Source of the DNA: a virus
Taxonomy: Duplodnaviria; Heunggongvirae; Uroviricota; Caudoviricetes
IMG/VR virus record: IMGVR_UViG_3300034069_000533
Location: 65,947-129,946 of that record
Reading direction: 5' to 3' (one strand)
Length of the DNA: 64,000 nt
The notes under the pieces are model-generated. The model ran no database searches and was not told the origin of the DNA. It was given only the letters and a program-made list of their open reading frames with translations. Shown one piece after another: positions 5,233 to 45,660 of this stretch. How positions within the stretch are numbered: position 1 is the stretch's first letter; each line of letters opens with the position of its first letter. The position numbers and the translations under genes were made by a program.

Positions 5233-5284
5233 TTCATCGCTTGACCATCCATCCCGCAACCATTAAACCCCAAATCAGCGCTAC

Positions 5285-5358: not shown

Positions 5359-5379
5359 TTTCGCGCTTTTTGGTTTTAT

Positions 5380-5453: not shown

Positions 5454-5459
5454 TTTTAT

Positions 5460-15196: not shown

Positions 15197-15255
15197 TTGC
15201 TGTGCTCCTTCTCTCTGAAACCTTTATATCGTGCGGAACACAGAGCGTCAACAGC
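15197..15255 (-). promoter_or_regulatory. consensus promoter-operator-leader cassette
   Basis: Same cassette. Confidence 0.55.
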
Positions 15256-16037
15256 TATTTCCCGACATACTTAAAAATTATGTGGTTGGCCAACGCTACG
15301 GCCTCCGGGTTTGGCACGGTTGCGCCCTTGCCGGACTCGGCCTTGGCGTAGTCCCATGCCCGGTCAACCATGGCGTCCAGCACCCGCACGCGCCTGCCGT
15401 GGCCAAGCTCTGATGCGGTAGCCTTAGCCATCAGCAGGGCGGAAATGGCGTCACGCTCATCCTGCGATAGCTGCAAGCCGGTGCCGGTCAAAAGCTCACG
15501 CACATCCATGGGCGGGAAACCGCAAGCGTGTTCGCGCATCCACAGGATGCAGAGCGCCGGACGCACGACATACAAATAGCGTTTGAGATTAACCGTCTCA
15601 GGATCGGCCATGTATTTGCGCTTAATTTGGTCAATCATGGCGCGGTAATGGTAGAGTGCGGCAGAGCGGTTTTCTGACAGCTTGGCTAGCTCGCTCAGGT
15701 CAGTAAAAAACTCTGAATTAACAAAATAGCCGATAGGCGAATTCATCCACTCGCGTACCGTGCTGTTGCCAGCCAGCATAAGACTCAGCGCCTTGCGAAT
15801 ATCCCAACCCGACAGATCAAGGTCATCCGGCAAATGCGGGTATTCGATCACGTCGCGGGTCTGGCCGATTGAAAGATAGCGCTGGACGTTATGGGCGTAA
15901 ATAAATCGCACATCCCAATCACTATCCGGGCTAGGAAATCCCCATGCCCGGCTGCCGGATTCTACAGCAAGCAGCACTTGGCAGGAATGCCCGCGCTCAA
16001 TCGCGCGTAGCTCAGAAACGATGCGCTTATTGTCCAT
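15255..16037 (-). CDS. nucleotidyltransferase-fold protein (Pol-beta superfamily, minimal NTase)
   Basis: GSRAWGF...SDWD matches the NTase hG[GS]x9-13Dh[DE]h motif; ~260 aa with a helical C-terminus; start coupled (TAATG) to the upstream gene. Confidence 0.5.
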   Translation of the reverse strand: MDNKRIVSELRAIERGHSCQVLLAVESGSRAWGFPSPDSDWDVRFIYAHNVQRYLSIGQTRDVIEYPHLPDDLDLSGWDIRKALSLMLAGNSTVREWMNSPIGYFVNSEFFTDLSELAKLSENRSAALYHYRAMIDQIKRKYMADPETVNLKRYLYVVRPALCILWMREHACGFPPMDVRELLTGTGLQLSQDERDAISALLMAKATASELGHGRRVRVLDAMVDRAWDYAKAESGKGATVPNPEAVALANHIIFKYVGK

Positions 16038-16333
16038 TAGCAATCCTCCTCCATCTTCTTGCGGCAAAACAAAATTACGGCATCCTCGGTTGATCCGCGA
16101 AACACAATATCCGGGCGCTTGCCAGCCTTCGTGTCGTCCATTGTTACCGTGCTGGCATCGCGGACAACAAATGCTTGGTCATATTCGTTATGCTCGCCGC
16201 AGCGCCGCACAGTCCGCACCGCGTAAATGGCAAAGCGGCTGAGCGATCCTGGCATCATGGCAACGGACAATTCCTGCCCGGCAACCAAGTGCTTCGGGCT
16301 ATTGCCGGGATTGATAGTGCGCCAGTTAAGCAT
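16037..16333 (-). CDS. hypothetical protein
   Basis: 98-aa ORF, middle gene of a three-gene unit. Confidence 0.35.
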   Translation of the reverse strand: MLNWRTINPGNSPKHLVAGQELSVAMMPGSLSRFAIYAVRTVRRCGEHNEYDQAFVVRDASTVTMDDTKAGKRPDIVFRGSTEDAVILFCRKKMEEDC

Positions 16334-26744: not shown

Positions 26745-27446
26745 CTAACTGAAGTCTGGCCTATAAATTTCGATGTAATCACAATGAACGTAAGCGTTTC
26801 TTTCTCTTCCTCCCGTCCTAATTTCTAACAAATAAACCAAACCAAAGGCACAATACGCATTTAATATTTCGTTCCATATTTTGTCACTATCAAATCTTGC
26901 AATTAACCTCTTTAAATCTCTAAGGGTCAATCCCCTTTTGTCTGCCTTATAAATTATTGAATACAATTTAACCATTTCTGCCAGTCTCGGCTTTGATCCC
27001 CTGATTTCAAATAATTTTTCCGCCTCGTTAAACTTCTGCCTGCACAAATTGCCTTCGGGCGTATCTGGAAATATTTTATCCAATAAACTGCTTTCTTTGT
27101 CTTTTTCTTTATATTCAACGCTTCCTAAATGCCCTGGCACAATAAATTGAACATTCGTCAAATCTGAATACATATTTCTAAAATGGACTATCCACTGCGC
27201 CTCTAATTCCATCCATCCTTCGTAGCATGAATCAATTTCTTCAATTAGCGGATAATGGCCATTGTCGTATAATTCACGAATCCATTTGCATTTCTCTGAC
27301 CTAAATTCAGTCGAGCCGTAAGCAAATGCTTCGTCCATGTGCTGCTTCAATCGGCGGTCAAGTCCGTGGAATGTCTTGCCAACGTACCTGACGCGTTTAT
27401 TCCTTGGGTCTTTCAAAACATAAATACGCGTTTTAAAACCGGACAT
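26745..27446 (-). CDS. GIY-YIG homing endonuclease
   Basis: N-terminal RIYVLKDPRNKRVRYVGKT...L..R...H matches GIY-(10-11)-YIG; low-GC island. Confidence 0.55.
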   Translation of the reverse strand: MSGFKTRIYVLKDPRNKRVRYVGKTFHGLDRRLKQHMDEAFAYGSTEFRSEKCKWIRELYDNGHYPLIEEIDSCYEGWMELEAQWIVHFRNMYSDLTNVQFIVPGHLGSVEYKEKDKESSLLDKIFPDTPEGNLCRQKFNEAEKLFEIRGSKPRLAEMVKLYSIIYKADKRGLTLRDLKRLIARFDSDKIWNEILNAYCAFGLVYLLEIRTGGRERNAYVHCDYIEIYRPDFS

Positions 27447-28257: not shown

Positions 28258-28482
28258 ATGTCCGATGTTGACCAGCGCGCAATGCTAGCGTGGCAAACTC
28301 TGGCGTTTGATCGCTTGGCTGCCGTCAACCAGCTTATTGACGCGCTGAATTCCGCATTACGCGATGTTGCCGACGCTGGCATGACGGTAAATCAGCCAAG
28401 GATCGAATCCCACCCGGCCAGCGCTGGCGGCTTGTCGGTGCCGTCCTACAGGATTTTGCCGATTAAGGGTAAGATTGGCTAA
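28258..28482 (+). CDS. hypothetical protein
   Basis: 74 aa; RBS ggag; stop overlaps the next start (TAATG). Confidence 0.4.
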   Translation: MSDVDQRAMLAWQTLAFDRLAAVNQLIDALNSALRDVADAGMTVNQPRIESHPASAGGLSVPSYRILPIKGKIG

Positions 28483-29021
28483 TGGCAACATTCTTTACCT
28501 CCGACACGCATTTTGGTCACACCGGCATTATTGCTCATTGCCACCGGCAATTTGCCAGCGTGCAGGAGATGGACGCGACGCTAATCCGCAACTGGAATGC
28601 GTTTGTTGGCCCGCGTGACGAAGTTTGGCACCTTGGCGATTTTACACTGGCTGGCACCGATGATGCCATTAATTATCTTAACCAGCTAAACGGCAAAATT
28701 CATCTGATTTGGGGCAATCATGACCGCAACAGCGTGCGGTCACTGTCCCGATGGGTGACAAGCGACTATGCGCGCGAAATCAACCTTGACGGCCACAAGC
28801 TGACGCTCTGCCATTACGCAATGCGCGTTTGGAATCAATGTGCGAGAGGCGCGCTCATGCTGTATGGCCACAGCCATACCGGCTTGCCCGGCACATCGCA
28901 GAGCCAGGATGTTGGCGTTGACGCTTGGGACTTCCGCCCGGTGACGCTAGCTGACATTCTGCACCGCATGGCCGGCGCACCCGCGTTTGCCAGCGAAGAT
29001 CATCATTCCCCGGAGTTTTAA
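28482..29021 (+). CDS. calcineurin-like metallophosphoesterase
   Basis: Motifs SDTHFGH, GD, GNHD and HSH in the canonical order. Confidence 0.65.
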   Translation: MATFFTSDTHFGHTGIIAHCHRQFASVQEMDATLIRNWNAFVGPRDEVWHLGDFTLAGTDDAINYLNQLNGKIHLIWGNHDRNSVRSLSRWVTSDYAREINLDGHKLTLCHYAMRVWNQCARGALMLYGHSHTGLPGTSQSQDVGVDAWDFRPVTLADILHRMAGAPAFASEDHHSPEF

Positions 29022-30319: not shown

Positions 30320-31753
30320 ATGTCTCGCATCAACGTCGCCCGGTCTTCCGGCGTATCCCCGTTCGTTCCGCACGAAGCGGGCGCCAATCAGGCGCTTTCC
30401 GCTGAGCAGACGCTAGAGCGGCTTGTGTCGTGCTGCCTGCTTGGCGAGGATCAGTTTTATCTCAACGGCCAGTCCGTCCAGACTGCGATTGCTGAGGTCG
30501 CCAAGCAGGTTAAGCCGGAATTTGTGGTGTCGCTCGCCGTCAAGGCGCGGCTTGAGCTTGGGCTGCGGCATGTCCCGCTGCTGCTGCTGACGCTCACGCT
30601 CGATACCGACGCGGGGCGCAACGCCATCCGCAAGCAGGCGGCGCCGATTCTGCGCACGCCGAAGGATGCGATGGATTTGCTGGCGCTCTACTGGCGAGCG
30701 GGCAAGCGTCCGGTGCCGCACGTTTTCAAGCAGCTTTTCCGTCAGCGCTTCGCGGTTTGGTCTGACTACCAAATCCAGAAGTATGGCACGCTATCGGCGC
30801 GCGTTAGCGTCCGGCTGCGTGATGTGCTGCGGCTGTGCCATGCCGATCCGCGCAATTTTTACTCCAACGCTCTGGCTGATGATCGTAACGCAATTACTGT
30901 TGCGCGCGAGGCTTTGTTTAAGTCGCTGACCGACGACACCATTCGCGCGCCCGACACCTGGGAGTCCGCGCTGTCTGCGGCCGGGCCGGATGGCGACAAG
31001 CGCGCCATTTGGGAGCGGCTGTTGGCTGAGCGGAAGCTTGGCGCGCTGGCGCTGGTCCGCAACCTGCGGAACATGGAGGCGGCCGGCGTCACCCCGGCGC
31101 TCGTGATCGCGGCCATGGAGACGGTCAAGGCGGGCGACGTATGGCCCTGGCAGGCTCTAGCGGCGGCGCGTGAGGCCCCGACCTATACGCACGCCCTGGA
31201 TGCCCTCATGCTGCGATCTGCCGGCTCCCTGCCGCGCCTGCCGGGGCATACGGGCGTGCTGGTAGACGTGTCGGGGTCCATGGATCACGGGCTGTCCACC
31301 AAGGGCACGATGAAGCGCATGGACGCGGGCGCCGGGCTTGCCGTGGTGCTGAATGAGGTTTGCGAGGCGTCCACCATCGCCAGCTTTTCCGAATCCGTGG
31401 TGCTGGTTTCCAGCATCGCCATAGGCAAGCGCGGCGCGGGTCTGGCCAGCGACATTGTACGCAGCCAGCCGCATGGCAGAACCTATCTGGCGCAGGCGGT
31501 GGAAACCTTCCTGCGCTGCCATCCGATCATTGACCGGCTGGTAATTCTGACCGACGAACAGGCGCAGGACCACTTCACGTCCCCGCCGAATTTGCCGGTG
31601 TATGTCGTCAATCTCGCGTCCACTGAGCGCGGGATGAACATGCAACAGAAGGTAACGCGTATCAACGGTTGGTCCGGCAATGTTATTCGCTGGCTGGCTC
31701 AGGATATTGCCGGCACCATCGGGCAGGTTGGCGACGGTAGCGAGGAAGATTAA
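30320..31753 (+). CDS. rsr: Ro60-related protein (TROVE domain plus vWA domain), Rsr ortholog
   Basis: The N-terminus NQALSAEQTLERLVSCCLLGEDQFYLNG aligns with the Ro60/Rsr N.xGG.A..L....L.RFL.LGSEGGTYY block. The C-terminal vWA has a MIDAS-like DVSGSM. Y-RNA-like genes lie immediately upstream, and the terminator gccgggcagtaatgcccggcttttttt follows. Confidence 0.75.
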   Translation: MSRINVARSSGVSPFVPHEAGANQALSAEQTLERLVSCCLLGEDQFYLNGQSVQTAIAEVAKQVKPEFVVSLAVKARLELGLRHVPLLLLTLTLDTDAGRNAIRKQAAPILRTPKDAMDLLALYWRAGKRPVPHVFKQLFRQRFAVWSDYQIQKYGTLSARVSVRLRDVLRLCHADPRNFYSNALADDRNAITVAREALFKSLTDDTIRAPDTWESALSAAGPDGDKRAIWERLLAERKLGALALVRNLRNMEAAGVTPALVIAAMETVKAGDVWPWQALAAAREAPTYTHALDALMLRSAGSLPRLPGHTGVLVDVSGSMDHGLSTKGTMKRMDAGAGLAVVLNEVCEASTIASFSESVVLVSSIAIGKRGAGLASDIVRSQPHGRTYLAQAVETFLRCHPIIDRLVILTDEQAQDHFTSPPNLPVYVVNLASTERGMNMQQKVTRINGWSGNVIRWLAQDIAGTIGQVGDGSEED

Positions 31754-33610: not shown

Positions 33611-33685
33611 TGGTTGCCCTGCCAGGATTCGAACCTAGACCCTCGCATTCAAAGTGCGATGTTACTACCGTTAAACTACAGGGCA
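33611..33685 (-). tRNA. tRNA-Gln: tRNA-Gln (TTG)
   Basis: Minus-strand read: acceptor tgccctg/cagggca, anticodon stem tcgca/tgcga with loop cTTTGaa, T-arm ctagg-ttcgaat-cctgg, encoded CCA. Confidence 0.7.
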
Positions 33686-33966: not shown

Positions 33967-34155
33967 TTAGCGCCGCCTAGCGTCCTCAAACAATGGCGTC
34001 AGGACAACCGCGAGCGCCGTCATGGCTACGCCCAATATTGCGGAAGCGAGAATTGGCACCGGCCCAAAAATCTCGCCAAAGAAGTAAGCAAAATTAACCG
34101 TAAACCCAATAATCAGAATAGCAGCCAGATAAAGCGGCATGTTTTTCTCCCTCAC
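33967..34155 (-). CDS. small membrane protein
   Basis: 62 aa with two hydrophobic helices; translationally coupled upstream of the SPFH gene. Confidence 0.35.
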   Translation of the reverse strand: MREKNMPLYLAAILIIGFTVNFAYFFGEIFGPVPILASAILGVAMTALAVVLTPLFEDARRR

Positions 34156-35081
34156 TTCCCTTCAACGCTGCCGGGCAGCATCATCATGGGAGTCGGCCCG
34201 GAGCCACCGAAAATCTGCCGGGGCATGGCGCCGTCCCACCGTTCAGCCTGCCGCAACCGCACATAGCTGTCGCCAGCGGCCCCAAGCGCTGCCGCCTGCG
34301 CCCGAATGGCACCAGCCTCAGCCTCACCCCGGAGCGCGATGCTGCGGGCCTCTGCGGCTGCCTGTAGCTCGGTCGCCTGCGCCTTGGCCTTGGCCTCGGC
34401 AACCGCGCTGTCAGCCCGCCCACGCGCCGCCTGAATGGCAGCGTTGGCCTCACCGCGCGCCGCATCCTCGCGCGTCTTGGCCTCCGTCTCAACCTGCGCC
34501 TGCCGCTGCTGCGCGATGGCCGCAGTGTTTACCGCATCACGGAATTCCTTGGAGTAATCAAAATTATCAAGTCGCAGGTCGTTAATCAGGATGCCATAAC
34601 GCTCCATCGCTTCTGGCTTCACGCGCTCAAAGATTGCCTGCTGAATGCGCGCCCGACCGCCGGGCAATTCCTCAGCGCGATGCGTGCCAATCTCAGCCTT
34701 GGCGCGGGCAACAATCAGGCTGGCGAGTAGCGCCTCAACGTTGCCGCGAATACGCCATACCTGCTCAACGTTGGCTTCCGGCACGATCCAATCAACCACG
34801 AAATCAACGTCAACGTGCTGCGGCTGGTTGCCGCTGGTAAACACTTCCAAATTCTTCAGCGTAAGAATGCGATTGGTCAAGCTAATATCGTCAACGCCGT
34901 CAATAAACGGCACCTTAAAGCCCATGCCGGGCTGAGCAATGCCGACAAAAGCGCCATTGCGGGTCAACACCCCACGCTCAGTGGCATGCACGTTGTAGAA
35001 GCTGCCGCCAATGGTGGTAATGCCAACCAGCCCAACCACGCCGAGAGCGGCAACACCGCCAATAAATCCAGCATTCGACAT
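34152..35081 (-). CDS. SPFH/band-7 (stomatin/HflK-like) membrane protein
   Basis: N-terminal TM segment, SPFH core, C-terminal Ala/Glu-rich coiled coil (AQVETEAKTREDAARGEANAAIQAARG...). Confidence 0.6.
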   Translation of the reverse strand: MSNAGFIGGVAALGVVGLVGITTIGGSFYNVHATERGVLTRNGAFVGIAQPGMGFKVPFIDGVDDISLTNRILTLKNLEVFTSGNQPQHVDVDFVVDWIVPEANVEQVWRIRGNVEALLASLIVARAKAEIGTHRAEELPGGRARIQQAIFERVKPEAMERYGILINDLRLDNFDYSKEFRDAVNTAAIAQQRQAQVETEAKTREDAARGEANAAIQAARGRADSAVAEAKAKAQATELQAAAEARSIALRGEAEAGAIRAQAAALGAAGDSYVRLRQAERWDGAMPRQIFGGSGPTPMMMLPGSVEGK

Positions 35082-35778: not shown

Positions 35779-35868
35779 GGTATGTGTTTTCCTTCTCTGT
35801 TGTGGTTAGCGAGTTAGGTATAGCGCTCTGGCTGGAACATTGCAAGCGTTCCGTACAGTTGCGGCGAA
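35779..35868 (-). promoter_or_regulatory. variant promoter TTGCAA-N17-TATACC with a different palindrome GGAACgcttgcaatGTTCC over the -35
   Basis: Upstream of the wHTH gene; possible autoregulatory operator. Confidence 0.35.
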
Positions 35869-36758
35869 TTTTCTTGAGCAACCTCAGAACCGGACTTGGA
35901 GCCAAACAGCGCGCCAATCAGCCCCTTACCCTTTTCTTCATGCATGACAACCTGACAATCATCCTGAATGCCAAGCTGCTCGGCCATGGCGTAAGCTGCC
36001 TGCCGGCGCGAACCGATACCATCAATCAGGCTGTATTCAAGCGCTGTCTGCGCATCAAAAATCATGGCGCCCATTTCGTCGGTAATAACATTTTCGTCAA
36101 TCATCCGGCACGATGAAACATGATTAACAAAATCGGCGTACTGTCGCTTCAGCATGCCACTAATGCCGTCATATTCCTCCTGCGTCATTGCGCGGTGCGG
36201 ATTCAAAATATCCTTGCCGCGCCCGGCGCTCAGCGTGCGAAAGTCAATGCCGCCGCCGCTGGCATCCGTCTCAATTCCGCCAAGCAATCCCTTCTGCGCA
36301 ATAACCTTGCGATAAAAAGCGTGCGTGCCAAGCGTCACGCCAATTGATCCAATGATGCTGCCAGGATCGGCGTAAATCTTGTCAGCCGCCACCATGGCCC
36401 AAACGCCACCCGATGCCGAAATGCCCTCAACATGGGCAAAAATCGGCGCTTTGTCGCCATAGTCAGAAATACCCTCGGCCAGCGCCTCAGCCGCCGATAC
36501 CGTGCCGCCGGGCGTGATAAACTGCATCAGTACGCCCTTGATGCTTTTGTCATCTTCGGCGCGGTCCAAGAGGTTCTGAATGTCCAGCGCCGATGCGCTG
36601 CGGTCAAGCGCGCTGAACGCGCCACGGGGCTTAACCGTAGTCATCACGCCTTCAACCCGGATCAGCAGAATCTTATTCTTGGAGTGACGATCACCCCAAA
36701 CATAGCGCGTGCTAAGCTTCTCGCCCTTGGTCGCGGTCTTACTCGAAAAAATACCCAA
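35814..36758 (-). CDS. S49-family (SppA/ClpP-fold) serine peptidase, NfeD-like
   Basis: GGTVSAAEALAEGI...APIFAHVEGISASGGVWAMVAADKIYADPGSIIGSIGV matches the SppA catalytic region; paired with the SPFH gene. Confidence 0.55.
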   Translation of the reverse strand: MGIFSSKTATKGEKLSTRYVWGDRHSKNKILLIRVEGVMTTVKPRGAFSALDRSASALDIQNLLDRAEDDKSIKGVLMQFITPGGTVSAAEALAEGISDYGDKAPIFAHVEGISASGGVWAMVAADKIYADPGSIIGSIGVTLGTHAFYRKVIAQKGLLGGIETDASGGGIDFRTLSAGRGKDILNPHRAMTQEEYDGISGMLKRQYADFVNHVSSCRMIDENVITDEMGAMIFDAQTALEYSLIDGIGSRRQAAYAMAEQLGIQDDCQVVMHEEKGKGLIGALFGSKSGSEVAQENSPQLYGTLAMFQPERYT

Positions 36759-37100: not shown

Positions 37101-37475
37101 ATGAGCGTATGCACTGATGATGTTGAGCGCGCGGTGTTTAATGCCTTTATTCGGCATTACCGCTGCGCCGGGATGGCCGGGCCAGCCTTGACCATTAATC
37201 ATTGGCTGGCGGTAGTCGCGGCGGGTGACGATGACGGATTCAACGCCAGTCAGCGCTTGCGCGATTGGTCGGCCATTCTGAGCGCGGCGGCGAGCGCGCT
37301 GGACGGCACCACGCCAGAGGATGCCGCCCGCATCCACAAAATTGAATGCGAGGCTTACGAACGCGCCGCAAAAGAGGTAGAAGCCATATTGCGCGAGGCG
37401 TCGCAAACAGTCGCCCGCGACATATCAACTGCCATCCGGCAGCTTGGATCAAAAGAAGGAAATAAACATGAGTAA
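37101..37475 (+). CDS. hypothetical protein
   Basis: 125 aa from MSVCTDD with RBS aagtggag. Confidence 0.35.
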   Translation: MSVCTDDVERAVFNAFIRHYRCAGMAGPALTINHWLAVVAAGDDDGFNASQRLRDWSAILSAAASALDGTTPEDAARIHKIECEAYERAAKEVEAILREASQTVARDISTAIRQLGSKEGNKHE

Positions 37476-38277
37476 TGACGCGCTAGGTGACAGAATGAAG
37501 GCTTACGAAGCGCGCGAAAGCGCGCGGCGCTTTCTGCCGGGTTTGCCGATCTATGCCCGCATTGATGGGCGCGGCTTTTCTCGCTTCACCAAGGGACTTG
37601 TGCGCCCCTTTGACCAGCGCATGTCGCTGGCCATGCTGAGCGCCACCCGGCGTCTTGTGCAGGAAACGCACGCCCGGATTGGCTATGTGCAATCGGATGA
37701 AATATCCCTCGTCTGGCTGGCGGAAGACGTGACCGGATCGGTTTTTTTTGACGGCAAGATTCAAAAAATGTGTTCGGTGCTGGCCGGAATGGCGACCGCT
37801 GCCTTTACCCGTGCCGTTCTGAATAGCGATCCGACATTCGCCGCCTACGCTGAAAAGCTGCCGCATTTTGACTGCCGGGTGATTGAGCTACCGAACAAGA
37901 CCGAAGCCGCCAATATGTTCCTTTGGCGTAATCTGGACGCGACCAAAAACGCAGTCAGCATGGCGTGTCGCCATTATTACCCGCATAAAGAAATGCACGG
38001 CCAGGGCCAAGCCGATCAACACGAAATGTTGCATGTGCAGGGTGTTAATTTCAATAACTACCCGGCATTCTTCAAGCGCGGGGTTTGGGTGCGGCGCGTG
38101 CTGGTAGAGCGGCCATTCACGCCACAGGAATTGGAGCGCATCCCCGAAGCGCACCGGCCAGAGCCGAATACCCTTGTGACTCGAAGTGAGATTCGTTCGT
38201 TTGACTTACCGAAGTTTAGCAGCGTGCTAAATCGGGAGGCGGTTATTTTTGATGGCGCGGAGGCGCTGACGCTATGA
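37468..38277 (+). CDS. Thg1-like protein (tRNA-His guanylyltransferase family, 3'-5' nucleotidyl polymerase)
   Basis: DRMKAYE...FLPGLPIYARIDGRGFSRFTKGL...QSDEISLVW parallels Thg1 blocks (KxYE, R[IL]DG[RK]xF[HS]xF, SDE[YI]SF); ~270 aa; RBS aaagaaggaaa. Confidence 0.65.
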   Translation: MSNDALGDRMKAYEARESARRFLPGLPIYARIDGRGFSRFTKGLVRPFDQRMSLAMLSATRRLVQETHARIGYVQSDEISLVWLAEDVTGSVFFDGKIQKMCSVLAGMATAAFTRAVLNSDPTFAAYAEKLPHFDCRVIELPNKTEAANMFLWRNLDATKNAVSMACRHYYPHKEMHGQGQADQHEMLHVQGVNFNNYPAFFKRGVWVRRVLVERPFTPQELERIPEAHRPEPNTLVTRSEIRSFDLPKFSSVLNREAVIFDGAEALTL

Positions 38278-38699
38278 GCCAACACAAATTCTGGCTCATG
38301 GTTACGGGCGGCAGGCACTACGCCAACCAGCCGGCGGTATGGGACGCGCTGGATGAGGTGCATTACGAGGTGGGCGGTATAACCCTGCTGATCCATGGCG
38401 CCACACCAACCAAGCAAGGCGCGGACTGGCTGGCCGATGCTTGGGCTAAAGCCCGTGGCGTGCCGGTCAAGCAGGTTCCGGTTGACACCAAGTTTGATGG
38501 TCCCTGGCCGAACGCTGGCCGCATGCGCAACGCGCGGATGCTGATGCACTACCCGCCGGATGGCATCATGGCGTGGCCAGGAGGTCCGGGAACACAGGAC
38601 ATGATGGTTAGAGCCGATTTAGCCGGGTATATCGTTCGCTATATTGACATACCCGACACCGGGCTTAATGCGGATGGCTCGCTAGTCGGAAAAGGATAA
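38274..38699 (+). CDS. SLOG-family (DUF2493-like) Rossmann-fold protein
   Basis: LMVTGGRHY...LLIHGATPTKQGADWLADAWAKARGVPV resembles the DprA/LOG-like SLOG core; coupled to the Thg1-like gene. Confidence 0.4.
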   Translation: MSQHKFWLMVTGGRHYANQPAVWDALDEVHYEVGGITLLIHGATPTKQGADWLADAWAKARGVPVKQVPVDTKFDGPWPNAGRMRNARMLMHYPPDGIMAWPGGPGTQDMMVRADLAGYIVRYIDIPDTGLNADGSLVGKG

Positions 38700-38723
38700 G
38701 GCGCCTCACGGCGCCTTTTTCAA
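38699..38723 (+). terminator. rho-independent terminator
   Basis: aaggcgcctcacggcgcc plus a T run. Confidence 0.6.
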
Positions 38724-39070: not shown

Positions 39071-39271
39071 TTACAACCGACAGCACGCCACCAACCACCG
39101 CAAAAGCGAACACTTCCAAATTTTCCAATGAGATAGCTTCCAAAGCATCCCTTCAATTAACTGCTCAACGCTGGTTCCTTTGCGCTCGCAATGATACTGA
39201 ATTATGCAACCAATCAATCCAATAATTATTGGCATACCATAAATCAGCAGCAGAAATTGCCCGTCGTTCAT
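39071..39271 (-). CDS. small membrane protein (low-GC)
   Basis: 66 aa with TM helix LLLIYGMPIIIGLIGCII. Confidence 0.3.
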   Translation of the reverse strand: MNDGQFLLLIYGMPIIIGLIGCIIQYHCERKGTSVEQLIEGMLWKLSHWKIWKCSLLRWLVACCRL

Positions 39272-40062
39272 TCGTGCAACTCCTTTACAAACGTCATATT
39301 GTTTTGCTGACAATATCGCTGAAACGCGACTTGGTGAAGCTCACCGGGCAGCATATTTATGCTGGTTCCGATTGTGCCGCCTTTCCATGATCCCTTGCGT
39401 CGTCCGGTTTCTTCTGAAAAAAACAAATCAAGCGAGCGCACAATTTTAGATTTACGGAACAGTGAAAGCCATTTAAACCACCCCTCACCAAACTTCCATT
39501 CGCCCTCATGAATGGCGGTTGTCGCTATAATTTCTTGTCCATCATAATCCTTAAATAAAAACTTACGCTTTGGGCAATCCTCTCGCGCGTCATGCCATGC
39601 GTCATATCCTTGCGTGCCTTTGTCTTGTGGCACGGTTGCAATGTGCTCGCCGTTTAATCCGTACACACTCCACCTAGTGTGCCGCCAATTCATCCAAGGC
39701 AAAAACTTAGAATAGCTTTTTGTTGTTTCGCTATCCCCGGTTTGCGGACCATAAAATAACTGAAAAAATCCTTCATTTGAGGAAACGCCGTATTGCTTTC
39801 TTGCAGTGTCAGTTAACAATTGACCATTGTATGCCGATATACGCGACTTTTGCCAAGGCTTTATGATCTCTGGAATCTCAGCAATAATAGTATGGCCAAA
39901 CCCGCTAATACGCAGCGAGCATGCCGGGGATTCGTCCCCGTCGCCGGAAGATAAAATAATGGCTAGTGGTTTATAACCTGACCTATTGCGGGCATAGGTA
40001 AATGGCCCACAATATTTATCATGATCGCTCCACCGATTATTGCGCGGCATTGTTTTCTCCAT
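39268..40062 (-). CDS. hypothetical Trp-rich protein (low-GC island)
   Basis: ~265 aa with GC well below the surrounding genome. Confidence 0.35.
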   Translation of the reverse strand: MEKTMPRNNRWSDHDKYCGPFTYARNRSGYKPLAIILSSGDGDESPACSLRISGFGHTIIAEIPEIIKPWQKSRISAYNGQLLTDTARKQYGVSSNEGFFQLFYGPQTGDSETTKSYSKFLPWMNWRHTRWSVYGLNGEHIATVPQDKGTQGYDAWHDAREDCPKRKFLFKDYDGQEIIATTAIHEGEWKFGEGWFKWLSLFRKSKIVRSLDLFFSEETGRRKGSWKGGTIGTSINMLPGELHQVAFQRYCQQNNMTFVKELHE

Positions 40063-40531
40063 AATTAAATTCCCTCGCCGCCAACGCCATAGCTGCATGC
40101 GGCCAAATCCAATCCAGCATGCGCTTTATCTCTGGCGGCATCTGTGCGCTCTGCACAAAGCCCATGCCGCCGTTACCCATCATCTGACCAAACACCATCG
40201 GACCAAACGGCCAGGGGCCATGAGCATACGGCTCCATATTCATTGTCCGGCACATATGTAAAGCCAGCCGTTCAATGCGCGCATCCCTGCGCGCCCAAGC
40301 AATAGCTTTGACGTAAGCCGCACGCAAAGAATTCGCTGAGCTATTAAACTCGCGCATTGGGTTGTTATAACTAAAATCATTCTTCCTTGCGCTGACGCCG
40401 TAATCTCCGTTGTGCGTCCAGCCGTTATTAATCAAATAGCCCGGCGGCGCCAGCTTACTAACCACACGCGGCAAGTCTTTAATAATTTTGTCCGGCACAT
40501 TTCGCGCCTGCTGTATTTGCCTTCTATTCAT
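40037..40531 (-). CDS. hypothetical protein
   Basis: 164-aa ORF. Confidence 0.35.
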   Translation of the reverse strand: MNRRQIQQARNVPDKIIKDLPRVVSKLAPPGYLINNGWTHNGDYGVSARKNDFSYNNPMREFNSSANSLRAAYVKAIAWARRDARIERLALHMCRTMNMEPYAHGPWPFGPMVFGQMMGNGGMGFVQSAQMPPEIKRMLDWIWPHAAMALAAREFNYGENNAAQ

Positions 40532-40973: not shown

Positions 40974-41411
40974 TTACAACTTGCGCCTCGGGCCGAACAT
41001 CCGGTCAATGCGATCAATTGCGGATTCGCTAATCCGCCGGTCCATCATCTCTTGCAGGGTCGGCGGCTCGGCAAACGCCGGGTCCGGTGGCGGCGTCTCT
41101 GGCAGCCCTAGCCCGCCGGGCTCTGGCGTGACCGTGGACGGGTCTTCCAGCCCTTCGGCTGCCGACAAGCCGTGATTGCCCCGGCGGGCATCCTCAGCCG
41201 CCATGCCGGCCTCTACGGAGGCCCGCCACGCGAGGTTTTCGCGCAAGCCCCGCTCAGCCGCCGCCAGGATGCGCGGCCGATACTCGGCATCCGTCTCCCC
41301 CGGCCGGCGCGGCACGTCCGATCCCCGGCCGAGAATATCCAACTGCCGCATGTTGTAGGTCGCCACCCGCCGGGCGTAGCCATCCAAAATATGCGTCACT
41401 TCGTCAGTCAT
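40974..41411 (-). CDS. hypothetical protein
   Basis: 145-aa ORF. Confidence 0.35.
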   Translation of the reverse strand: MTDEVTHILDGYARRVATYNMRQLDILGRGSDVPRRPGETDAEYRPRILAAAERGLRENLAWRASVEAGMAAEDARRGNHGLSAAEGLEDPSTVTPEPGGLGLPETPPPDPAFAEPPTLQEMMDRRISESAIDRIDRMFGPRRKL

Positions 41412-41575
41412 TCCTTCATTCCCTCTGCTTCTTCAACCAACACCCGACAAACGCACGGCGCCCCTTCATGGTAAGCGCACGCGCGCATTTGCTTAAAATG
41501 CCACGGACAATCAATACGCGTGGCAAATTCCTCAATCTTGTCGTCAATAAGCTTTCGCTTTTCCTTCTCGTTCAT
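41408..41575 (-). CDS. hypothetical 55-aa protein
   Basis: Fills a gap; MNEKEKRKLIDDKIEEFATRIDCPWHFKQM...; not in the ORF track. Confidence 0.3.
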   Translation of the reverse strand: MNEKEKRKLIDDKIEEFATRIDCPWHFKQMRACAYHEGAPCVCRVLVEEAEGMKE

Positions 41576-42141
41576 CCGATTAACTCCCGACAGATTGCGC
41601 GATGACTTCTAATCCAATTGCTAAATGTATGCACAGCAACTATCTTGTCGTGCGGAAACTCTGGATGCCAATGCTTAGGGTTTTCCGGGTCGCAGACATA
41701 ACCAACCGTCATATAATCAATGTCGCTTGGAAATGGTGGCGTCCGGTTGCACCATACGATTGTGCGGGGTGGCGTGTCACGTCTGATTTTGCGCGGTATC
41801 CACTTTTGGCCGGGCGCCAATTTAAACGCGCTATAATCAAACGTGTTTAGTTTTTGATCGGCAGTTTTTTCTTGTTCGATCCACTCGCCGTTTTCTGCCT
41901 CCTCAAACAGCCGATCATTGCGCCGCTTAATCTCAGCGCCAATCGCCTGCATAACCTGTGCCGGCAAACGCAGCGGCTTGCCCGGCACTAGCTCAATCTC
42001 CACCCCATCCCGCATGGCATCAAAGAACGCAGCCACAATCGTTGTTGTGTGCCGCAGTCGCCGCATGCCGGAAGATCGGACGGATATATGCGCCTCTTTC
42101 AAAGCGCGCTGTATCGGGTCCAGCTTGGCCATTAGGTCCAA
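41572..42141 (-). CDS. hypothetical protein
   Basis: 189-aa ORF. Confidence 0.35.
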   Translation of the reverse strand: MDLMAKLDPIQRALKEAHISVRSSGMRRLRHTTTIVAAFFDAMRDGVEIELVPGKPLRLPAQVMQAIGAEIKRRNDRLFEEAENGEWIEQEKTADQKLNTFDYSAFKLAPGQKWIPRKIRRDTPPRTIVWCNRTPPFPSDIDYMTVGYVCDPENPKHWHPEFPHDKIVAVHTFSNWIRSHRAICRELIG

Positions 42142-42620
42142 AGGCTCTCGCGTATTTCCATTAGCTTTTTAAGTTTTTGGTCACATACGTTTTCAACGTG
42201 ACCATATTCATATTTGGATTCTTTTACTCGGCCAAGGCTAATAACCCGTTTAATTTCAACGCCAGCAACCGTTTCCGGCACGGTCATAATTTTTCCTGAA
42301 AAAGATTCTCGAACATCTTTGGCGTAATCTTCTTTAAGCGCTGGCAGTTCGTCCCGATACCACAGCCAAAGATCAATAGCTTTTTTATCTCCATCGTCAG
42401 AGGCGTGCAGGCGATAGCCGCGATACATGCCATTCTCGCCGTCTTCTCGGTCAGCGGACCAAGAGGCTGGCTCGGTGCCAAGCTCCTTCTCGACATATTC
42501 ACCAAGAATAATGAAGCAGGCGTGAAACATACGGGTATCCGCATCAACCCAATCACCCTTTTCAAAGGGCAGCTTCAGGGTGGTAAAATCAAGCTCAGAC
42601 ATTTTAAACTCCCGCACCAA
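42132..42620 (-). CDS. hypothetical protein
   Basis: 162-aa ORF. Confidence 0.35.
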   Translation of the reverse strand: MVREFKMSELDFTTLKLPFEKGDWVDADTRMFHACFIILGEYVEKELGTEPASWSADREDGENGMYRGYRLHASDDGDKKAIDLWLWYRDELPALKEDYAKDVRESFSGKIMTVPETVAGVEIKRVISLGRVKESKYEYGHVENVCDQKLKKLMEIRESLWT

Positions 42621-43182
42621 ACAGCTTCAGGTTAGGAATACGCCCGGCAATAACATGCGATGGCGTCCAGTCGTTTTGCACAACCTCATTACGCAGCTTC
42701 GTGCAGATCAGCCCAAGCTTATTGTAACCCCGCAGGCAACCGGGGCTGCCAGCCAGCACCGCCGCGCCCCAAAAGTTATCCTTGCTGCTGCGCTCAACAA
42801 TGGTGCGGTCCTCGGTGTCCCGAATGGCCGGGGTAAGCGTGTGGATATTCTGCTCAATCTTCAGCCGCACCACCCATTCCATAACGGACTCGCGTACCGC
42901 ATCCCAATCCGGCCGGGTGTCGCTGATGAACGCCTTGGCATTCAGCTTGGCGTTAAAGCCATTCAGCCCGGCAAACACCGCCTCTTGCGCCCGCACATTA
43001 TGCGGATACCGGCAAGCCTGATACAGCGCCTCAGAGGAAGTCCAGCCCATGTTATTGACCATAATTGGATAGCCGCTGGTCATGTTGGACCACGCGCCGT
43101 GGCGCTCGCGCGAGCGAAAGAACACCGCGCATTGCACGGCGTAATAGGTTGTCATATCCGGGGCGTCAGGAAGCATTGGCAT
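42604..43182 (-). CDS. NADAR-domain (YbiA-like, DUF1768) protein
   Basis: FFRSRERHGAWSNMTSGYPIMVNNMGWTSSEALYQACRYPHN matches the NADAR core (F...G..SN...GWTSSEALYQA.KF). Confidence 0.55.
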   Translation of the reverse strand: MPMLPDAPDMTTYYAVQCAVFFRSRERHGAWSNMTSGYPIMVNNMGWTSSEALYQACRYPHNVRAQEAVFAGLNGFNAKLNAKAFISDTRPDWDAVRESVMEWVVRLKIEQNIHTLTPAIRDTEDRTIVERSSKDNFWGAAVLAGSPGCLRGYNKLGLICTKLRNEVVQNDWTPSHVIAGRIPNLKLFGAGV

Positions 43183-43185
43183 TTT

Positions 43186-43935
43186 TTAAACTCCTTCTTT
43201 ATATTTTTTCAGTCTATCTCTTGTTTGCTCTGGCGTCAATCTGCTTCCTTTCATTCTGTTGCACCTAAGACAAGATATTTTTAGATTTTCCCATGTGTGG
43301 TTGCCGCCTTTTGCTATGGATACAATATGCTCAATCTCTGCTTTGTTCGCTGATCTAGGCTCAGCTTGAATTGACGTTTCTATTCCACATATATAGCATA
43401 TTAATCCGTCTCTTTTTGCTATGTCTTCAATTGTAATTTTTTCAAATATTATTCCACGAATTGTTGCTTTTCTTTTTGCTTTAGAGATTTTTGCGTTAAT
43501 TTTTACTTTTTCTTTATTTTTTGTTCGCCAAATTTTTGAATTGCATGAAGCTTGCTCTGAATTGGAGTAATGCCATATTTTTGATCTTTCTTTTATTTTT
43601 TCTTTGTTGTTTTGATAATATTTGATTTGGTTTTCTTTGTATTTTTCAGGATTTTTTGCTATCCACTCTTTAAATTTTTTGTTTCTTTTTTGCGGGTCTT
43701 TGTTGGCATTTTTTCTATTTGTTTCTTTTACTTTTTCAGGATTTTCCAACCAAAGTTTTTGCATTCTTTCCCTTGATCTTATTCTTCCGCACTCATTGCA
43801 AACACCGTTTAATGTTTGTCTATCTGACAAATGATTGTTTACACATAATTTTCCTGTAAAATAACTTTTTAAACCAAGCTTTTTGGCTTCTGATCTTTTT
43901 ATAATTTTTTGATTCATTATACACCCATCAAACAA
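43186..43935 (-). CDS. HNH homing endonuclease (low-GC)
   Basis: C-terminal CYICGIE...EIEHIVSIAKGGNHTWENLKISCLRCNRMKG; AT-rich gene with a K-rich N-terminus. Confidence 0.6.
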   Translation of the reverse strand: MFDGCIMNQKIIKRSEAKKLGLKSYFTGKLCVNNHLSDRQTLNGVCNECGRIRSRERMQKLWLENPEKVKETNRKNANKDPQKRNKKFKEWIAKNPEKYKENQIKYYQNNKEKIKERSKIWHYSNSEQASCNSKIWRTKNKEKVKINAKISKAKRKATIRGIIFEKITIEDIAKRDGLICYICGIETSIQAEPRSANKAEIEHIVSIAKGGNHTWENLKISCLRCNRMKGSRLTPEQTRDRLKKYKEGV

Positions 43936-45299
43936 GCCGCAAACCTTGCTCTAGTCAAAGCTACATACATAAGTTGCTGGTATTCAAGCAGCTTATAGCT
44001 AATTAACTTGTTGCAGTCAGGAACGTCAATCAGCACATTTGAAAATGTAGAACCTTGGCTTGTGTGGATGGTCATGCTGTAAACCGGCCGCAAATCGGCA
44101 ATCTCATCCTTGAAAAGAAATAAGTCTTTCCATCGTGCCTTATTGCCCTGCGCCTCAGCCCGAATGCGACCGATGACAAATTGCAACTCTTGCTCATTGA
44201 CCGGAATGTAAGCCGTCACGTCATCGTTGTTAATAATCTGCTCGCCAGTCCACTTGTCGCGGTAAATGTCTGGCTGGTTGCGGACAAGACTGACCTTCCA
44301 TACCGGCAAGTCATAATACCATTCCGGTATTTCAAGCTGGCCGGGGGAGCCTACCCGCTTTTCAAAATAAATCTTTTTGGTGGATAGCTCAATGTCGGAA
44401 ATATACGCCTCCTCATTGGTCTGGAATGCCGGGCGCCCCATACCATCCAACACCGGATTGCGGCACATGACGCGCTCACCCGGTACAAACGGGGTTTCCG
44501 TCTCGCCGTAAATCCAATAACGCGCCTTGGCGTTAATTTCTTTGACCTTATTATTGGTGTAGGCCAGATAACGAAAACTATCGTTATCCTCCCGAAAAAC
44601 CTCTGACGTAAAAGCGTCATTCAGCCATTTATCGCCATCCGTGCCCGCGCAATACACGCCCGATTGGCCATGCTCGACAGTCCGCACCCATGACATATCC
44701 AGCGCACCGCCCTGCTGGCGCCGCAGAATGCCCGCCGCTTGCAGGATGGGGTTATCTGCCGCCTGCCGCACAACCTCGCTCAGATGCGCGTGGTACTCGC
44801 CACCGATCATCCGATCAAAGATAGGCGCGCGAGCTTCACCCACAGGCGGAAGCTGCGCCGGGTCGCCAACGTAAAGCCGGAAATGCCACGCCAAGTCATT
44901 GTCAATGACACGCTGCATTTCGTGGCCGTTCATTGAAGTTTCGTCAACAACAACGGCCTGATATGCGCCGGCCCGGCTCTTGCCGATTTTCTTTAATACG
45001 GTTTTTTCCGTATCACCCGCCGCCGGGCGCAGCCCCATAAGGCTATGCTCGGTCATGCAGGGAACGTCTAGCTCAGCCTCTACCATCTTGCGCGACAGCA
45101 CTTTGACGGACTGATGCGTTGGCCCGACGCACACAACGTTATGGCCAATGTCCTGAATGGACTTGGCCACCTTTTGCATCAGCGTGGTTTTACCTGTGCC
45201 AGAATCACCCGTGAGCAAAACCTCACGGCTCACCCGATCTTGGTAAATCTGCATAATCCGGGCAAACGCGGACTCCTGCGATCCGCTCAGCGTTATCAT
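43917..45299 (-). CDS. RecD/Dda-like SF1 DNA helicase
   Basis: Walker A LTGDSGTGKTT; Walker B VVVDETSM; C-terminal SMTIHTSQGSTF ... ALTRAR. Confidence 0.65.
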   Translation of the reverse strand: MITLSGSQESAFARIMQIYQDRVSREVLLTGDSGTGKTTLMQKVAKSIQDIGHNVVCVGPTHQSVKVLSRKMVEAELDVPCMTEHSLMGLRPAAGDTEKTVLKKIGKSRAGAYQAVVVDETSMNGHEMQRVIDNDLAWHFRLYVGDPAQLPPVGEARAPIFDRMIGGEYHAHLSEVVRQAADNPILQAAGILRRQQGGALDMSWVRTVEHGQSGVYCAGTDGDKWLNDAFTSEVFREDNDSFRYLAYTNNKVKEINAKARYWIYGETETPFVPGERVMCRNPVLDGMGRPAFQTNEEAYISDIELSTKKIYFEKRVGSPGQLEIPEWYYDLPVWKVSLVRNQPDIYRDKWTGEQIINNDDVTAYIPVNEQELQFVIGRIRAEAQGNKARWKDLFLFKDEIADLRPVYSMTIHTSQGSTFSNVLIDVPDCNKLISYKLLEYQQLMYVALTRARFAACLMGV

Positions 45300-45660
45300 G
45301 TTTTGGTTTGATCCTTCTCGCCTTGGCCGCGCGTTTGCGTGCTTTATGCTTGACGTATCTTAGCTCAGCCGCCGCCAGTAGGTCAACGTAGAACATGATT
45401 CGCTCTAGCTTTACCGGATCATGTTTAAGAAATCTTTTAACTGACATGCTGCCTTTGCGCAGATTGCACGGCTGGCAGGAAGCCACAAAATTACTATACC
45501 GGGCCATGCAGCCATCTAGGGCGCGGGGGATTACATGGTCCAAGTGATCGCGGGATGTTAGCCCGCAATCACAATAGGCGCAGCGCCAGCCCCATGCATG
45601 AAACACAGTGTCTTTTATCTGGCGCCGCTGTTTTGCGTTCCGGTTTTTAATTCCGGCCAT
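45223..45660 (-). CDS. HNH endonuclease
   Basis: CAYCDCGL...DHLDHVIPRALDG...CQPCNLRKGS. Confidence 0.55.
   Translation of the reverse strand: MAGIKNRNAKQRRQIKDTVFHAWGWRCAYCDCGLTSRDHLDHVIPRALDGCMARYSNFVASCQPCNLRKGSMSVKRFLKHDPVKLERIMFYVDLLAAAELRYVKHKARKRAAKARRIKPKHDNAERIAGVRVCPDYADLPRSGEP

Follow-up and report, generated by a model that had tools for sequence, protein, structure and literature searches.

Free-standing NADAR proteins encoded by phages are an established class of counter-defence factor. Three unrelated phage orphans of this kind, AdfN of T4 (gp30.3), AdfN-Bas32 and AdfN-Bas60, neutralize DarTG1 by removing the guanine ADP-ribose that DarT1 sets on DNA, and NADARs were argued to have been co-opted by phages several times; mutagenesis indicated that residues E36 and K43 of T4 AdfN matter (Johannesman et al. 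2025, PMC11825919). E. coli YbiA is both a riboflavin-intermediate N-glycosidase and a hydrolase of guanine- and cytosine-linked ADP-ribose (G-ADPr and C-ADPr). All NADAR subtypes tested in one study, including YbiA, hydrolyse G-ADPr in vitro, and YbiA-type enzymes also remove C-ADPr. In one study, however, YbiA and the T4 NADAR were active in vitro but did not rescue cells from DarT1, indicating that in vivo specificity is not readable from the fold. Subfamilies have been distinguished at the position of PnNADAR E125, where Glu denotes YbiA, Asp the BC4488/DarT1-linked NADARs and His the T4-like phage NADARs (PMC11543638). A further described system is DS-32, an anti-phage system validated by experiment (DefensePredictor) that comprises PRTase-CE (DS-32A; NCBIfam NF053875, DS32_1) and a NADAR protein (DS-32B; NF053876, DS32_2). 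The partner of the NADAR half is thus a phosphoribosyltransferase, not an ADP-ribosyltransferase. A literature search for 'PRTase-CE' returned no match.

The NADAR gene examined here lies in a window of 64,000 nucleotides (the whole stretch of DNA that was analysed), approximately half of a phage contig, and an identical protein was found on a 129,946-bp metagenome contig. The initial annotation had described the setting as a mobile element packed with nucleases. Instead, the window is part of a large phage genome, in which PHROG matches pick out primase and helicase genes as well as those for terminase, portal, capsid and protease, and the nearby nucleases are homing endonucleases. A megablast search of positions 41000-45500 against 50,697 phage records returned no match, and the capsid protein showed no more than 38% identity to its counterparts in those records, indicating that the phage has no annotated close relative. 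The NADAR gene sits in a leftward replication/accessory gene array together with a homologue of the CBASS inhibitor Acb3, the real start of which is probably near 40050 (Table 1). The array is probably ended by a hairpin. When 38-50 kb was scanned for promoters and terminators, the number of candidates did not exceed that in shuffles, and this conserved hairpin is the sole element of the scan retained here.

Table 1. Features of the NADAR gene and the surrounding leftward array
Feature	Coordinates	Strand	Evidence and remarks
NADAR-domain gene, YbiA-type	42604..43182	-	ORF, Pfam, NCBIfam, residues, AlphaFold2 and Foldseek
Shine-Dalgarno AAGGAG, 8 nt 5' of the NADAR ATG, within the final HNH-gene codons	43191..43196	-	Read from sequence
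HNH homing endonuclease, free-standing, between Dda helicase and NADAR	43186..43935	-	Pfam HNH E=8e-11; PHROG HNH/endonuclease VII
Dda-like SF1 helicase, ancestral upstream neighbour of NADAR	43917..45299	-	PHROG 325 E=6e-83; Pfam AAA_30 and UvrD_C_2
ORF156	42132..42602	-	ATG 1 nt past the NADAR stop, GGGAG before it
ORF189	41572..42141	-	No family match; 92% identical in sibling contig
Acb3 (CBASS inhibitor) homologue, distal end of co-directional block	39268..40098	-	Pfam PF25187 E=1.2e-75
GC-rich hairpin, 8 bp stem, between convergent gene arrays	38698..38717	.	Terminator-like on both strands

The ORF list gave an ORF at exactly 42604..43182, encoding 192 aa from an ATG start. The initial annotation had assigned it a NADAR core, GWTSSEALYQAC, which corresponds to residues 46-57 of the protein, and that assignment was borne out on the minus strand: the profile match and the aligned catalytic residues on which it had been made to depend were both found. 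The Pfam NADAR profile (PF08719) matched with E=6.1e-17 and a score of 62.8 bits (cut-off 35.1), spanning profile positions 2-161 of 163, whilst PHROG 1017 (E=5.7e-23) and the structure of E. coli YbiA (2b3w; E=1.2e-9) were also matched. An AlphaFold2 model (pLDDT 96.8, pTM 0.92) was matched by Foldseek at a probability of 1.00 both to 2b3w (TM 0.65/0.73; E=6e-7) and to 8bau, an oomycete NADAR in complex with ADP-ribose (TM 0.64/0.65), and the predicted fold fits a YbiA-like alpha-helical core with small flanking beta-sheets. These data confirm that the gene encodes a NADAR superfamily protein, with a match far above chance. PADLOC returned only a weak match, PDC-M42C (E=2e-4).

Residues E51, R58, W93, R97, E130, D135 and W138 were identified as putative catalytic or ligand residues. 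The catalytic Glu, E51, is followed seven positions on by the basic R58, a pair equivalent to E88/K95 of E. coli C7, E43/K50 of PnNADAR and E36/K43 of T4 AdfN, the last of which aligned to E51/R58 by hhalign; W93, R97, D135 and W138 fill the ADPr-contacting Trp/Arg/Asp positions. Across an alignment of 93 paired NADARs with 30 orphans from viruses and 11 from genomes, E51, Y54, K108, E130, S132, D135, W138 and N154 were invariant, and the window protein retains every one of them. Position 58 was Arg or Lys in this alignment, and the Lys to Arg change in the window protein is shared with most DS-32B-like proteins. E130, within IVERSSKDNFWGA, aligned to LYEASRHDAIWG of 8bau; the presence of Glu rather than Asp at this diagnostic position indicates a YbiA-type protein and not one of the DarT1-linked type. 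The TIGR02464 model of riboflavin-intermediate N-glycosidases scored 51.8 bits, under its curated cut-off of 73.7. The window protein therefore appears, from its residues and predicted fold, to be a free-standing, catalytically competent N-glycohydrolase of YbiA type.

The diagnostic residue also bears on an AdfN-like, anti-DarT1 role, in which ADP-ribosyltransferases (ARTs) of DarT1 type (or pierisin/ScARP type) would modify guanine in phage DNA and the protein would strip the ADP-ribose off again. The initial annotation had made such a link to DarT, and the conserved Glu/basic pair, the adjoining replication helicase, the precedent of the three AdfNs and the breadth of G-ADPr hydrolysis among NADARs all accord with it. 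We nevertheless consider it unlikely, as Glu130 is neither the Asp of DarT1-linked NADARs nor the His of T4-like ones. Amongst the AdfNs, direct sequence comparison covered that of T4, for which BLASTP detected no pairwise similarity (E=0.39) and hhalign aligned the active-site motif only, at a probability of 63%. No Escherichia phage was retrieved by tblastn at E<=1e-3, a profile of the window NADAR family did not match the solved Geobacter DarG1 (DarT1-linked) NADAR at E<=1, and no DarT domain was found by Pfam in the neighbours of the gene. The lack of in vivo rescue from DarT1 by YbiA also argues against this role, as does the usual partner of the related bacterial NADARs, a phosphoribosyltransferase (PRTase) and not an ART; on this evidence the DarT-specific link was not sustained.

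That partner is the one found in DS-32. Of the family models, DS32_2 was far ahead with 164.8 bits (E=1e-48; positions 2-179 of 181) vs 62.8 (Pfam NADAR) and 51.8 (TIGR02464), though below its own equivalog cut-off of 240, and paired bacterial homologues scored 237 to 276 on the same model. After the sibling phage sequence described below, the top BLAST matches were paired bacterial NADARs (37-44% identity). In three homologues from three bacterial groups, the NADAR gene directly follows and overlaps a PRTase-CE gene whose product passes the DS32_1 equivalog cut-off, and two of these three NADARs were above the DS32_2 cut-off. More broadly, PRTase-CE abutted a related NADAR in 67 of 80 bacterial genome loci. 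The PRPP-binding loop was kept in 98 of 100 PRTase-CE partners, suggesting that these are plausibly active transferases with an N-ribosyl product that NADAR could cleave. DS-32-like NADARs fitting our search motif were rare, with 482 stretches recovered from a genome set spanning 185,579 species, which counts against DS-32 as the target.

The window NADAR itself has no PRTase-CE immediately upstream, the upstream genes being the HNH endonuclease and then the Dda helicase. Within the 64-kb window the best candidates for PRTase-CE had E=0.25 (hmmsearch --max) and E=0.2 (tblastn), and no ART, DarT, macrodomain, Nudix or PRTase domain was present among 40 window ORFs scanned with Pfam. Orphan NADARs were likewise seen in 38-40 of 80 viral loci. 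Complete PRTase-CE and NADAR pairs made up half of the IMG/VR matches, indicating that such systems travel on viral or prophage-like elements. This observation would suit a toxin-antitoxin or superinfection-exclusion module carried by the phage, with the NADAR protein as its antitoxin and the toxin being an unrecognized neighbour such as ORF156, which begins 1 nt after the NADAR stop codon and is conserved in the sibling phage, or a gene outside the window, which covers about half of the contig. We regard such a module as very improbable. The toxin gene of DS-32 lies upstream of NADAR and overlaps it, where the ancestral gene here is a helicase; ORF156 (no Pfam, PHROG or NCBIfam match) and ORF189 have no family matches, and neither they nor any other window neighbour recurred beside NADAR in 160 other loci; and no recurrent alternative partner was present within 3 kb of NADAR at 50 orphan loci.

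In a neighbour-joining tree rooted on YbiA alone and built without Bas32, Bas60 or DarG1 sequences, the window NADAR had only orphans as neighbours, lay outside the paired clade and grouped with orphans in 92.5% of bootstraps. Bootstrap values were 3% for the 10-member orphan clade and 41.5% for the group uniting the window protein and Planctomycetota; this deep branching is poorly supported, and the tree therefore does not establish descent from a DS-32 antitoxin. Planctomycetota chromosomes also carry free-standing relatives, in surroundings that look ordinary, so the orphan state alone does not imply counter-defence. We considered whether these Planctomycetota orphans were prophage-borne and rejected this, as their neighbours (FabH, DDE transposase, AAA ATPase, PD40 and DUF2201) look non-viral.

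A 3.8 kb sibling contig (L168) carries the same syntenic block, with a NADAR of 62% amino-acid identity to that of the window. There the Dda gene stops at 684 and NADAR starts at 686 with no HNH gene between them, indicating that the HNH gene of the window is an insertion. The GC content of that gene is 30.5% vs 57.7% for NADAR and 52.6% for Dda, and we treat it as context, outside NADAR function. The window Dda has 82% identity to the upstream ORF of L168, a counterpart of ORF156 lies 3' of NADAR (59% identity), and the syntenic Acb3 homologue (70% identical) is directly followed by the hairpin, which is 97% conserved. Dda-NADAR synteny was restricted to this sibling; two further viral loci (L016 and L040) were rejected because their Dda matches were weak (E~1e-4) and lay at a distance of 8 to 10 kb. 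The block that holds NADAR and Acb3 is thus conserved in two related phages, which makes it a candidate anti-defence region of an otherwise uncharacterized phage lineage.

The same neighbourhood could be read in two other ways. A YAcAr SLOG-domain gene is situated ~4 kb from NADAR, two other orphan loci have SLOG homologues less than 10 kb away, and the Acb3 of the block counters another signal-based defence, features consistent with an enzyme whose targets are small ADP-ribose-derived molecules serving as immune signals or toxins (e.g. TIR/Thoeris-type products) and not macromolecule adducts. This seems improbable to us given that the SLOG gene runs on the other strand and is outside the block of the 3.8-kb sibling contig, that the co-occurrences are weak (E=6e-7 and 1e-5), and that every NADAR activity demonstrated in the cited papers concerns base adducts or riboflavin intermediates. 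Alternatively, genes associated with RNA repair on the phage genome (TROVE/Ro-like, RlaP and Thg1-like), a published genomic context that ties NADARs to RNA repair, and YbiA as the nearest solved structure could point to a housekeeping or RNA-repair helper that clears ADPr-type by-products of tRNA repair or acts, like YbiA, on reactive riboflavin-pathway intermediates. We hold this to be less probable still. The RNA-repair genes are 4 to 27 kb from NADAR, which has Dda, Acb3 and small ORFs as its conserved neighbours; the ORFs scanned included neither KptA/Tpt1 nor an RNA ligase; the TIGR02464 cut-off was missed; and a phage would not evidently need riboflavin damage control.

We favour, with moderate confidence, an orphan antitoxin-like N-glycohydrolase that acts in counter-defence, most likely against DS-32-type toxins. 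In this scheme a host toxin would place ribose-type adducts on phage nucleic acid or nucleotides, and the NADAR protein, produced from the phage's replication/accessory array, would cut the N-glycosidic bond between the ribose moiety (ADP-ribose or 5-phosphoribose) and the nucleobase amine, clearing the adducts so that phage replication could go on. The likeliest threat would be a DS-32-type PRTase toxin, since the related bacterial NADARs are mostly the DS-32B partner of PRTase-CE; guanine or cytosine ADP-ribose made by a DarT1-like ART is a second possible substrate. Because in bacteria its nearest relatives form the antitoxin-like half of DS-32, the gene is probably of a stolen-antidote type. 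A more specific and tentative proposal is that orphan NADARs of this clade are dedicated DS-32 inhibitors that reverse PRPP-dependent N-phosphoribosylation of bases. DS-32A would then use PRPP to N-phosphoribosylate an exocyclic nucleobase amine in phage DNA, RNA or nucleotides, so that immunity would operate by base phosphoribosylation and not ADP-ribosylation, and either the host DS-32B or the phage orphan could hydrolyse the N-glycosidic bond, as YbiA does on 5-phosphoribosylamino-pyrimidines.

With AdfN established experimentally, the existence of a NADAR gene in this phage is unsurprising, and the counter-defence role put forward in the initial annotation is plausible but of an already known kind. 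The novelty lies in the link to DS-32, as the best curated family match, like the majority of the related bacterial NADARs, represents the NADAR half of that system. Should the phage protein neutralize DS-32, a natural inhibitor of the system would be in hand, a toxin-antitoxin logic for it would be supported, and a PRPP-dependent base modification undone by an N-glycohydrolase would be suggested as its chemistry. If orphans of this clade were indeed dedicated inhibitors, no natural anti-DS-32 factor would precede this protein, which would give direct access to the DS-32 mechanism.

Compared with the described systems, the window NADAR resembles AdfN in being phage-encoded, free-standing and without a toxin partner among early/replication-type genes, in carrying the catalytic Glu with a basic residue seven positions on, and in its presumed logic of an orphan antitoxin-like enzyme that erases the modification made by a toxin. 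It differs in having Glu where T4-like phage NADARs have His, and in that AdfN counters DarT1 whereas the bacterial relatives of the window protein pair with a PRTase. With DarG1 of the BC4488 subfamily, a type IV antitoxin that reverses base modification and has a conserved Glu/Lys pair (Schuller et al. 2023), it has the NADAR fold in common, but DarG1 has the diagnostic Asp, in contrast to Glu130, and is extended at its N terminus by a basic stretch for which ssDNA binding has been proposed. YbiA is the nearest solved structure (113.7 bits with the family profile) and shares the YbiA-type Glu and the lack of the N-terminal extension of DarT1-linked NADARs; however, identity is only 23%, YbiA has Lys in place of Arg at position 58, lacks the C-terminal tail (residues ~169-192) that the window protein has in common with DS-32B proteins, and is encoded in a LexA-regulated operon and not in a phage. 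DS-32B and the window NADAR have every invariant residue in common, along with two signature motifs, SSEALYQACRYP and SKDNFWGA. DS-32B, however, occurs in a bacterial defence locus next to PRTase-CE, whereas the window protein is phage-encoded with no adjacent PRTase-CE, scores under the DS32_2 equivalog cut-off and clusters with orphans outside the paired DS-32B clade.

The predicted protein carries GWTSSEALYQAC at residues 46-57. As read from the sequence, a Shine-Dalgarno AAGGAG lies 8 nt 5' of its ATG and the ATG of the next gene 1 nt from its stop codon. It matched Pfam PF08719 over its full length (E=6.1e-17; 62.8 bits against a cut-off of 35.1), PHROG 1017, labelled as unknown function (E=5.7e-23), and the E. 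coli YbiA structure 2b3w (E=1.2e-9). An AlphaFold2 model (pLDDT 96.8, pTM 0.92) built from an input alignment of 40 sequences resembled YbiA (Foldseek E=6e-7; TM 0.65/0.73) and 8bau, a Phytophthora NADAR-ADP-ribose complex (E=5e-5; TM 0.64), with no significant Foldseek match beyond these two. As profile, structural and model matches all pointed to NADAR and the catalytic residues were kept, the domain claim of the initial annotation stands and the assignment is solid.

Residues were mapped through the family alignment, profile alignment to 8bau and 2b3w, and hhalign alignment to T4 gp30.3. PnNADAR contacts ADP-ribose through E43, K50, R79, W89, R93, E125, D130 and W133 (Schuller et al., PMC11543638); counterparts in the window protein were E51, R58 (Arg for Lys), W93, R97, E130, D135 and W138. 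At the E125 position, Glu denotes the YbiA subfamily, Asp DarT1-linked NADARs (BC4488) and His T4-like phage NADARs (PMC11543638), and the mapped residues, including E130 at this diagnostic position, assign the protein by sequence to the YbiA type. E51 and R58 aligned with E36 and K43 of AdfN, the anti-DarT factor NADAR of T4, where mutants of either residue drop to partial rescue in counter-defence and the E36A protein leaves ADP-ribose on DNA in vitro (PMC11825919). Among distinct sequences of 93 NADARs paired with a PRTase-CE phosphoribosyltransferase, and of 30 viral and 11 genomic orphans without one adjoining, E51, Y54, K108, E130, S132, D135, W138 and N154 were invariant or nearly so, and position 58 was always Arg or Lys. 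We infer that the protein is enzymatically competent.

The top curated family was NCBIfam NF053876, 'DS32_2 NADAR family anti-phage protein' (E=1e-48, positions 2-179 of 181), whose 164.8 bits fell under the equivalog cut-off of 240 but far exceeded the scores for generic NADAR (62.8) and TIGR02464 (51.8, missing its cut-off of 73.7). DS-32, an E. coli anti-phage system that has been validated, consists of two genes, for the phosphoribosyltransferase DS-32A and the NADAR DS-32B; the authors of the DefensePredictor study suggest that toxin and antitoxin partners were swapped relative to DarTG. By BLAST, the next best matches after a sibling contig were paired bacterial NADARs (37-44 % identical). 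In all three homologue loci inspected (Acinetobacter baumannii, an Alteromonadaceae MAG and Clostridium algidicarnis), NADAR lay directly downstream of a PF24390 PRTase-CE gene and overlapped it; the PRTases (253, 407 and 331 bits) all passed the DS32_1 equivalog cut-off of 250, the NADARs scored 237, 276 and 275 bits against the DS32_2 cut-off of 240, and the surroundings of the latter two loci resembled a defence island. In a motif-seeded survey, PRTase-CE abutted NADAR in 67 of 80 GTDB species-genome loci. Among 80 IMG/VR contigs (L007-L086), 40 held a complete PRTase-CE and NADAR pair, 38, some of them very large (231 to 485 kb), were orphans with sufficient upstream sequence, and two lay at contig edges. 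Since many paired IMG/VR loci were isolate-genome UViGs, prophage-like elements appear to carry DS-32-type systems. Several paired loci showed very long stop-free frames through the NADAR domain (L007 9503-12079, L008 9911-14032, L009, L011-L013, L019) and L021 (9344-10564) perhaps roughly 100 extra aa at the N-terminus; either genuine domain fusions or artefacts of high GC could account for them.

The window gene is itself an orphan. PRTase-CE was absent from the window (hmmsearch --max best E=0.25; tblastn best E=0.2), no ART, macrodomain, Nudix or PRTase domain was found among 40 window ORFs scanned with Pfam, and no neighbour within 3 kb recurred across 50 orphan loci. That the protein is the antitoxin of a phage-borne module whose toxin goes unrecognised is, alongside these searches, highly improbable. 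In a neighbour-joining tree rooted on YbiA (200 bootstraps), it paired with its sibling-contig homologue in 100 % of replicates, and the smallest clade of at least five tips around it lacked PRTase-paired members in 92.5 %. Its neighbours were viral orphans and four free-standing Planctomycetota genes (L106, L127, L131, L143) in unrelated chromosomal contexts (FabH, DDE transposase, AAA ATPase, DUF2201 protein), with no PRTase or evident prophage around them. Because deeper nodes were poorly supported and long branches might have produced the ladder-like topology, a descent of the phage orphans from DS-32 antitoxins would be no more than tentative.

The window is a phage genome, with large terminase, portal, head protease and major head protein genes, a primase, two helicases (one Dda-like) and five tRNAs (table). 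An identical protein occurs on a 129,946-bp JGI metagenome contig. No INPHARED phage was close, with no megablast match and capsid protein at most 38 % identical. The NADAR gene sits in a long, mainly leftward run (primase, HNH, Dda-like helicase, HNH, NADAR, ORF156, ORF189, several small ORFs, Acb3 homologue) closed by a conserved hairpin, where the convergent Thg1-like and SLOG genes meet it. The 3.8-kb metagenomic contig L168, carrying the sole close homologue, kept this order (Dda C-terminus 82 %, NADAR 62 %, ORF154 59 % and ORF186 92 % identical), continuing through three small ORFs to Acb3 (70 %) and the hairpin. In two further loci (L084, L085), a divergent orphan NADAR had an Acb3 homologue no more than about 2 kb away. 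ORF189, at 92 % identity between the window and L168 against 52-62 % for flanking genes including NADAR, may be under unusually strong constraint.

Features of the phage genome around the NADAR gene
Feature	Position	Strand	Remarks
tRNA cluster (Leu-TAA, Leu-TAG, Pro-TGG, Tyr-GTA)	5156-5541	+	Overlaps ORF 5329-5541 (-) from crude ORF calling
Large terminase subunit, 1082 aa	8228-11476	-	Two Hint/intein segments, about residues 170-263 and 540-810
RlaP (RNA-repair pathway Pol-beta family) nucleotidyltransferase	15255-16067	-	
GIY-YIG endonuclease	26745-27446	-	
Calcineurin-like phosphoesterase	28482-29021	+	
TROVE/Ro-like RNA-binding protein	30320-31753	+	
tRNA-Gln	33611-33685	-	Separate
SPFH/Band 7 protein	34152-35081	-	Near neighbour
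S49 (NfeD-like) peptidase	35814-36758	-	Near neighbour
Thg1-like (tRNA-His guanylyltransferase family), then YAcAr SLOG-domain gene	37444-38699	+	
Hairpin	38698-38717		Conserved
Acb3 CBASS-inhibitor homologue	39268-40098	-	PF25187, E=1.2e-75; co-directional with NADAR, syntenic in L168
ORF189	41572-42141	-	No family match
NADAR	42604-43182	-	192 aa, ATG start
HNH endonuclease, free-standing	43186-43935	-	Exactly at Dda-NADAR junction; absent from L168
Dda-like helicase	43917-45299	-	5' of HNH and NADAR
Second HNH endonuclease	45223-45660	-	Overlaps Dda gene start

The stop codon of Dda adjoins the start of NADAR in L168, and the window HNH gene between them has a GC content of 30.5 %, against 57.7 % for NADAR, 52.6 % for Dda and a window mean of 54 %; the HNH gene is therefore a homing-endonuclease insertion. 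The initial annotation's 'mobile element packed with nucleases' is a phage, and this insertion explains the nucleases noticed there. A similar sequence (GGAGTTTAAAA..ATG) occurs at both the HNH-NADAR and NADAR-ORF156 junctions. The pairing of SPFH/Band 7 with an S49 peptidase is unusual in phage. The TROVE/Ro-like, RlaP and Thg1-like genes suggest a phage RNA-repair toolkit, and NADAR might serve as an RNA-repair or housekeeping helper; however, none of the three is adjacent to it, and we regard this role as very unlikely. On the 147.7-kb viral contig L021, a Thg1 gene (68 % identical) lies about 3 kb from NADAR.

On balance we lean, somewhat beyond even, towards an active N-glycohydrolase serving the phage as an orphan, antitoxin-like counter-defence. 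The likeliest opponent would be a DS-32-type PRTase toxin, as related bacterial NADARs usually pair with such a protein. NADAR would strip ribosyl-type adducts from nucleobases, allowing replication to continue. The PRPP-binding loop of type-I PRTases (DDx3-4[S/T]G) was kept in 98 of 100 distinct PRTase-CE sequences, with both Asp and the loop Gly invariant, so these proteins are probably active as PRPP-dependent transferases. A base amine bearing an N-(5-phosphoribosyl) adduct would present the bond type cut by NADARs in G-ADPr and riboflavin intermediates, an equivalence we infer partly from established YbiA knowledge. Anti-DS-32 activity by reversal of base phosphoribosylation is a more tentative proposal. 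Iyer, Aravind and colleagues propose that most phage NADARs degrade small ADPr-derived immune signals, a role slightly supported here by the YAcAr SLOG gene about 4 kb away and in our estimation quite unlikely.

Counter-defence by orphan phage NADARs is already known, the initial annotation's idea having been published in 2024-2025. Among CHARACTERISED phage NADARs, T4 gp30.3 (AdfN) strips ADP-ribose off DarT1-modified DNA, the divergent Bas32 and Bas60 NADARs neutralise DarT1 and let phage plate again on DarTG1 hosts, and all three left the thymidine-targeting DarTG2 defence unaffected (Johannesman et al., PMC11825919). DarT1-linked, sigma70-linked, YbiA and T4 NADARs alike hydrolyse G-ADPr in vitro (Cihlova et al., PMC11125620), yet YbiA and T4 NADAR did not rescue cells from DarT1 (PMC11125620), so the fold suggests a broader specificity than is seen in vivo. 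Cytidine ADP-ribose, too, is removed by NADARs of the YbiA type. That the window protein acts like AdfN, specifically against DarT1, is unlikely, though less so than immune-signal degradation: it lacked pairwise similarity to T4 gp30.3 (BLASTP E=0.39), by profile the two aligned only at the active-site motif, and its family profile matched YbiA (113.7 bits) and PnNADAR (43.8 bits) with no match to the DarT1-linked Geobacter NADAR. By tblastn (E<=1e-3), 32 of 50,697 phage records matched, none from Escherichia phages, the best being Dolichospermum phage Dfl-JY45 (39 % identity) and a 485-kb uncultured phage (41.5 %). A link of phage orphan NADARs to DS-32 was absent from the literature searched; it would be the novel part, and yields a concrete, testable hypothesis on DS-32 defence. 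Judged by its sequence, the window gene is a highly divergent new candidate among phage counter-defence NADARs, from another NADAR subfamily.
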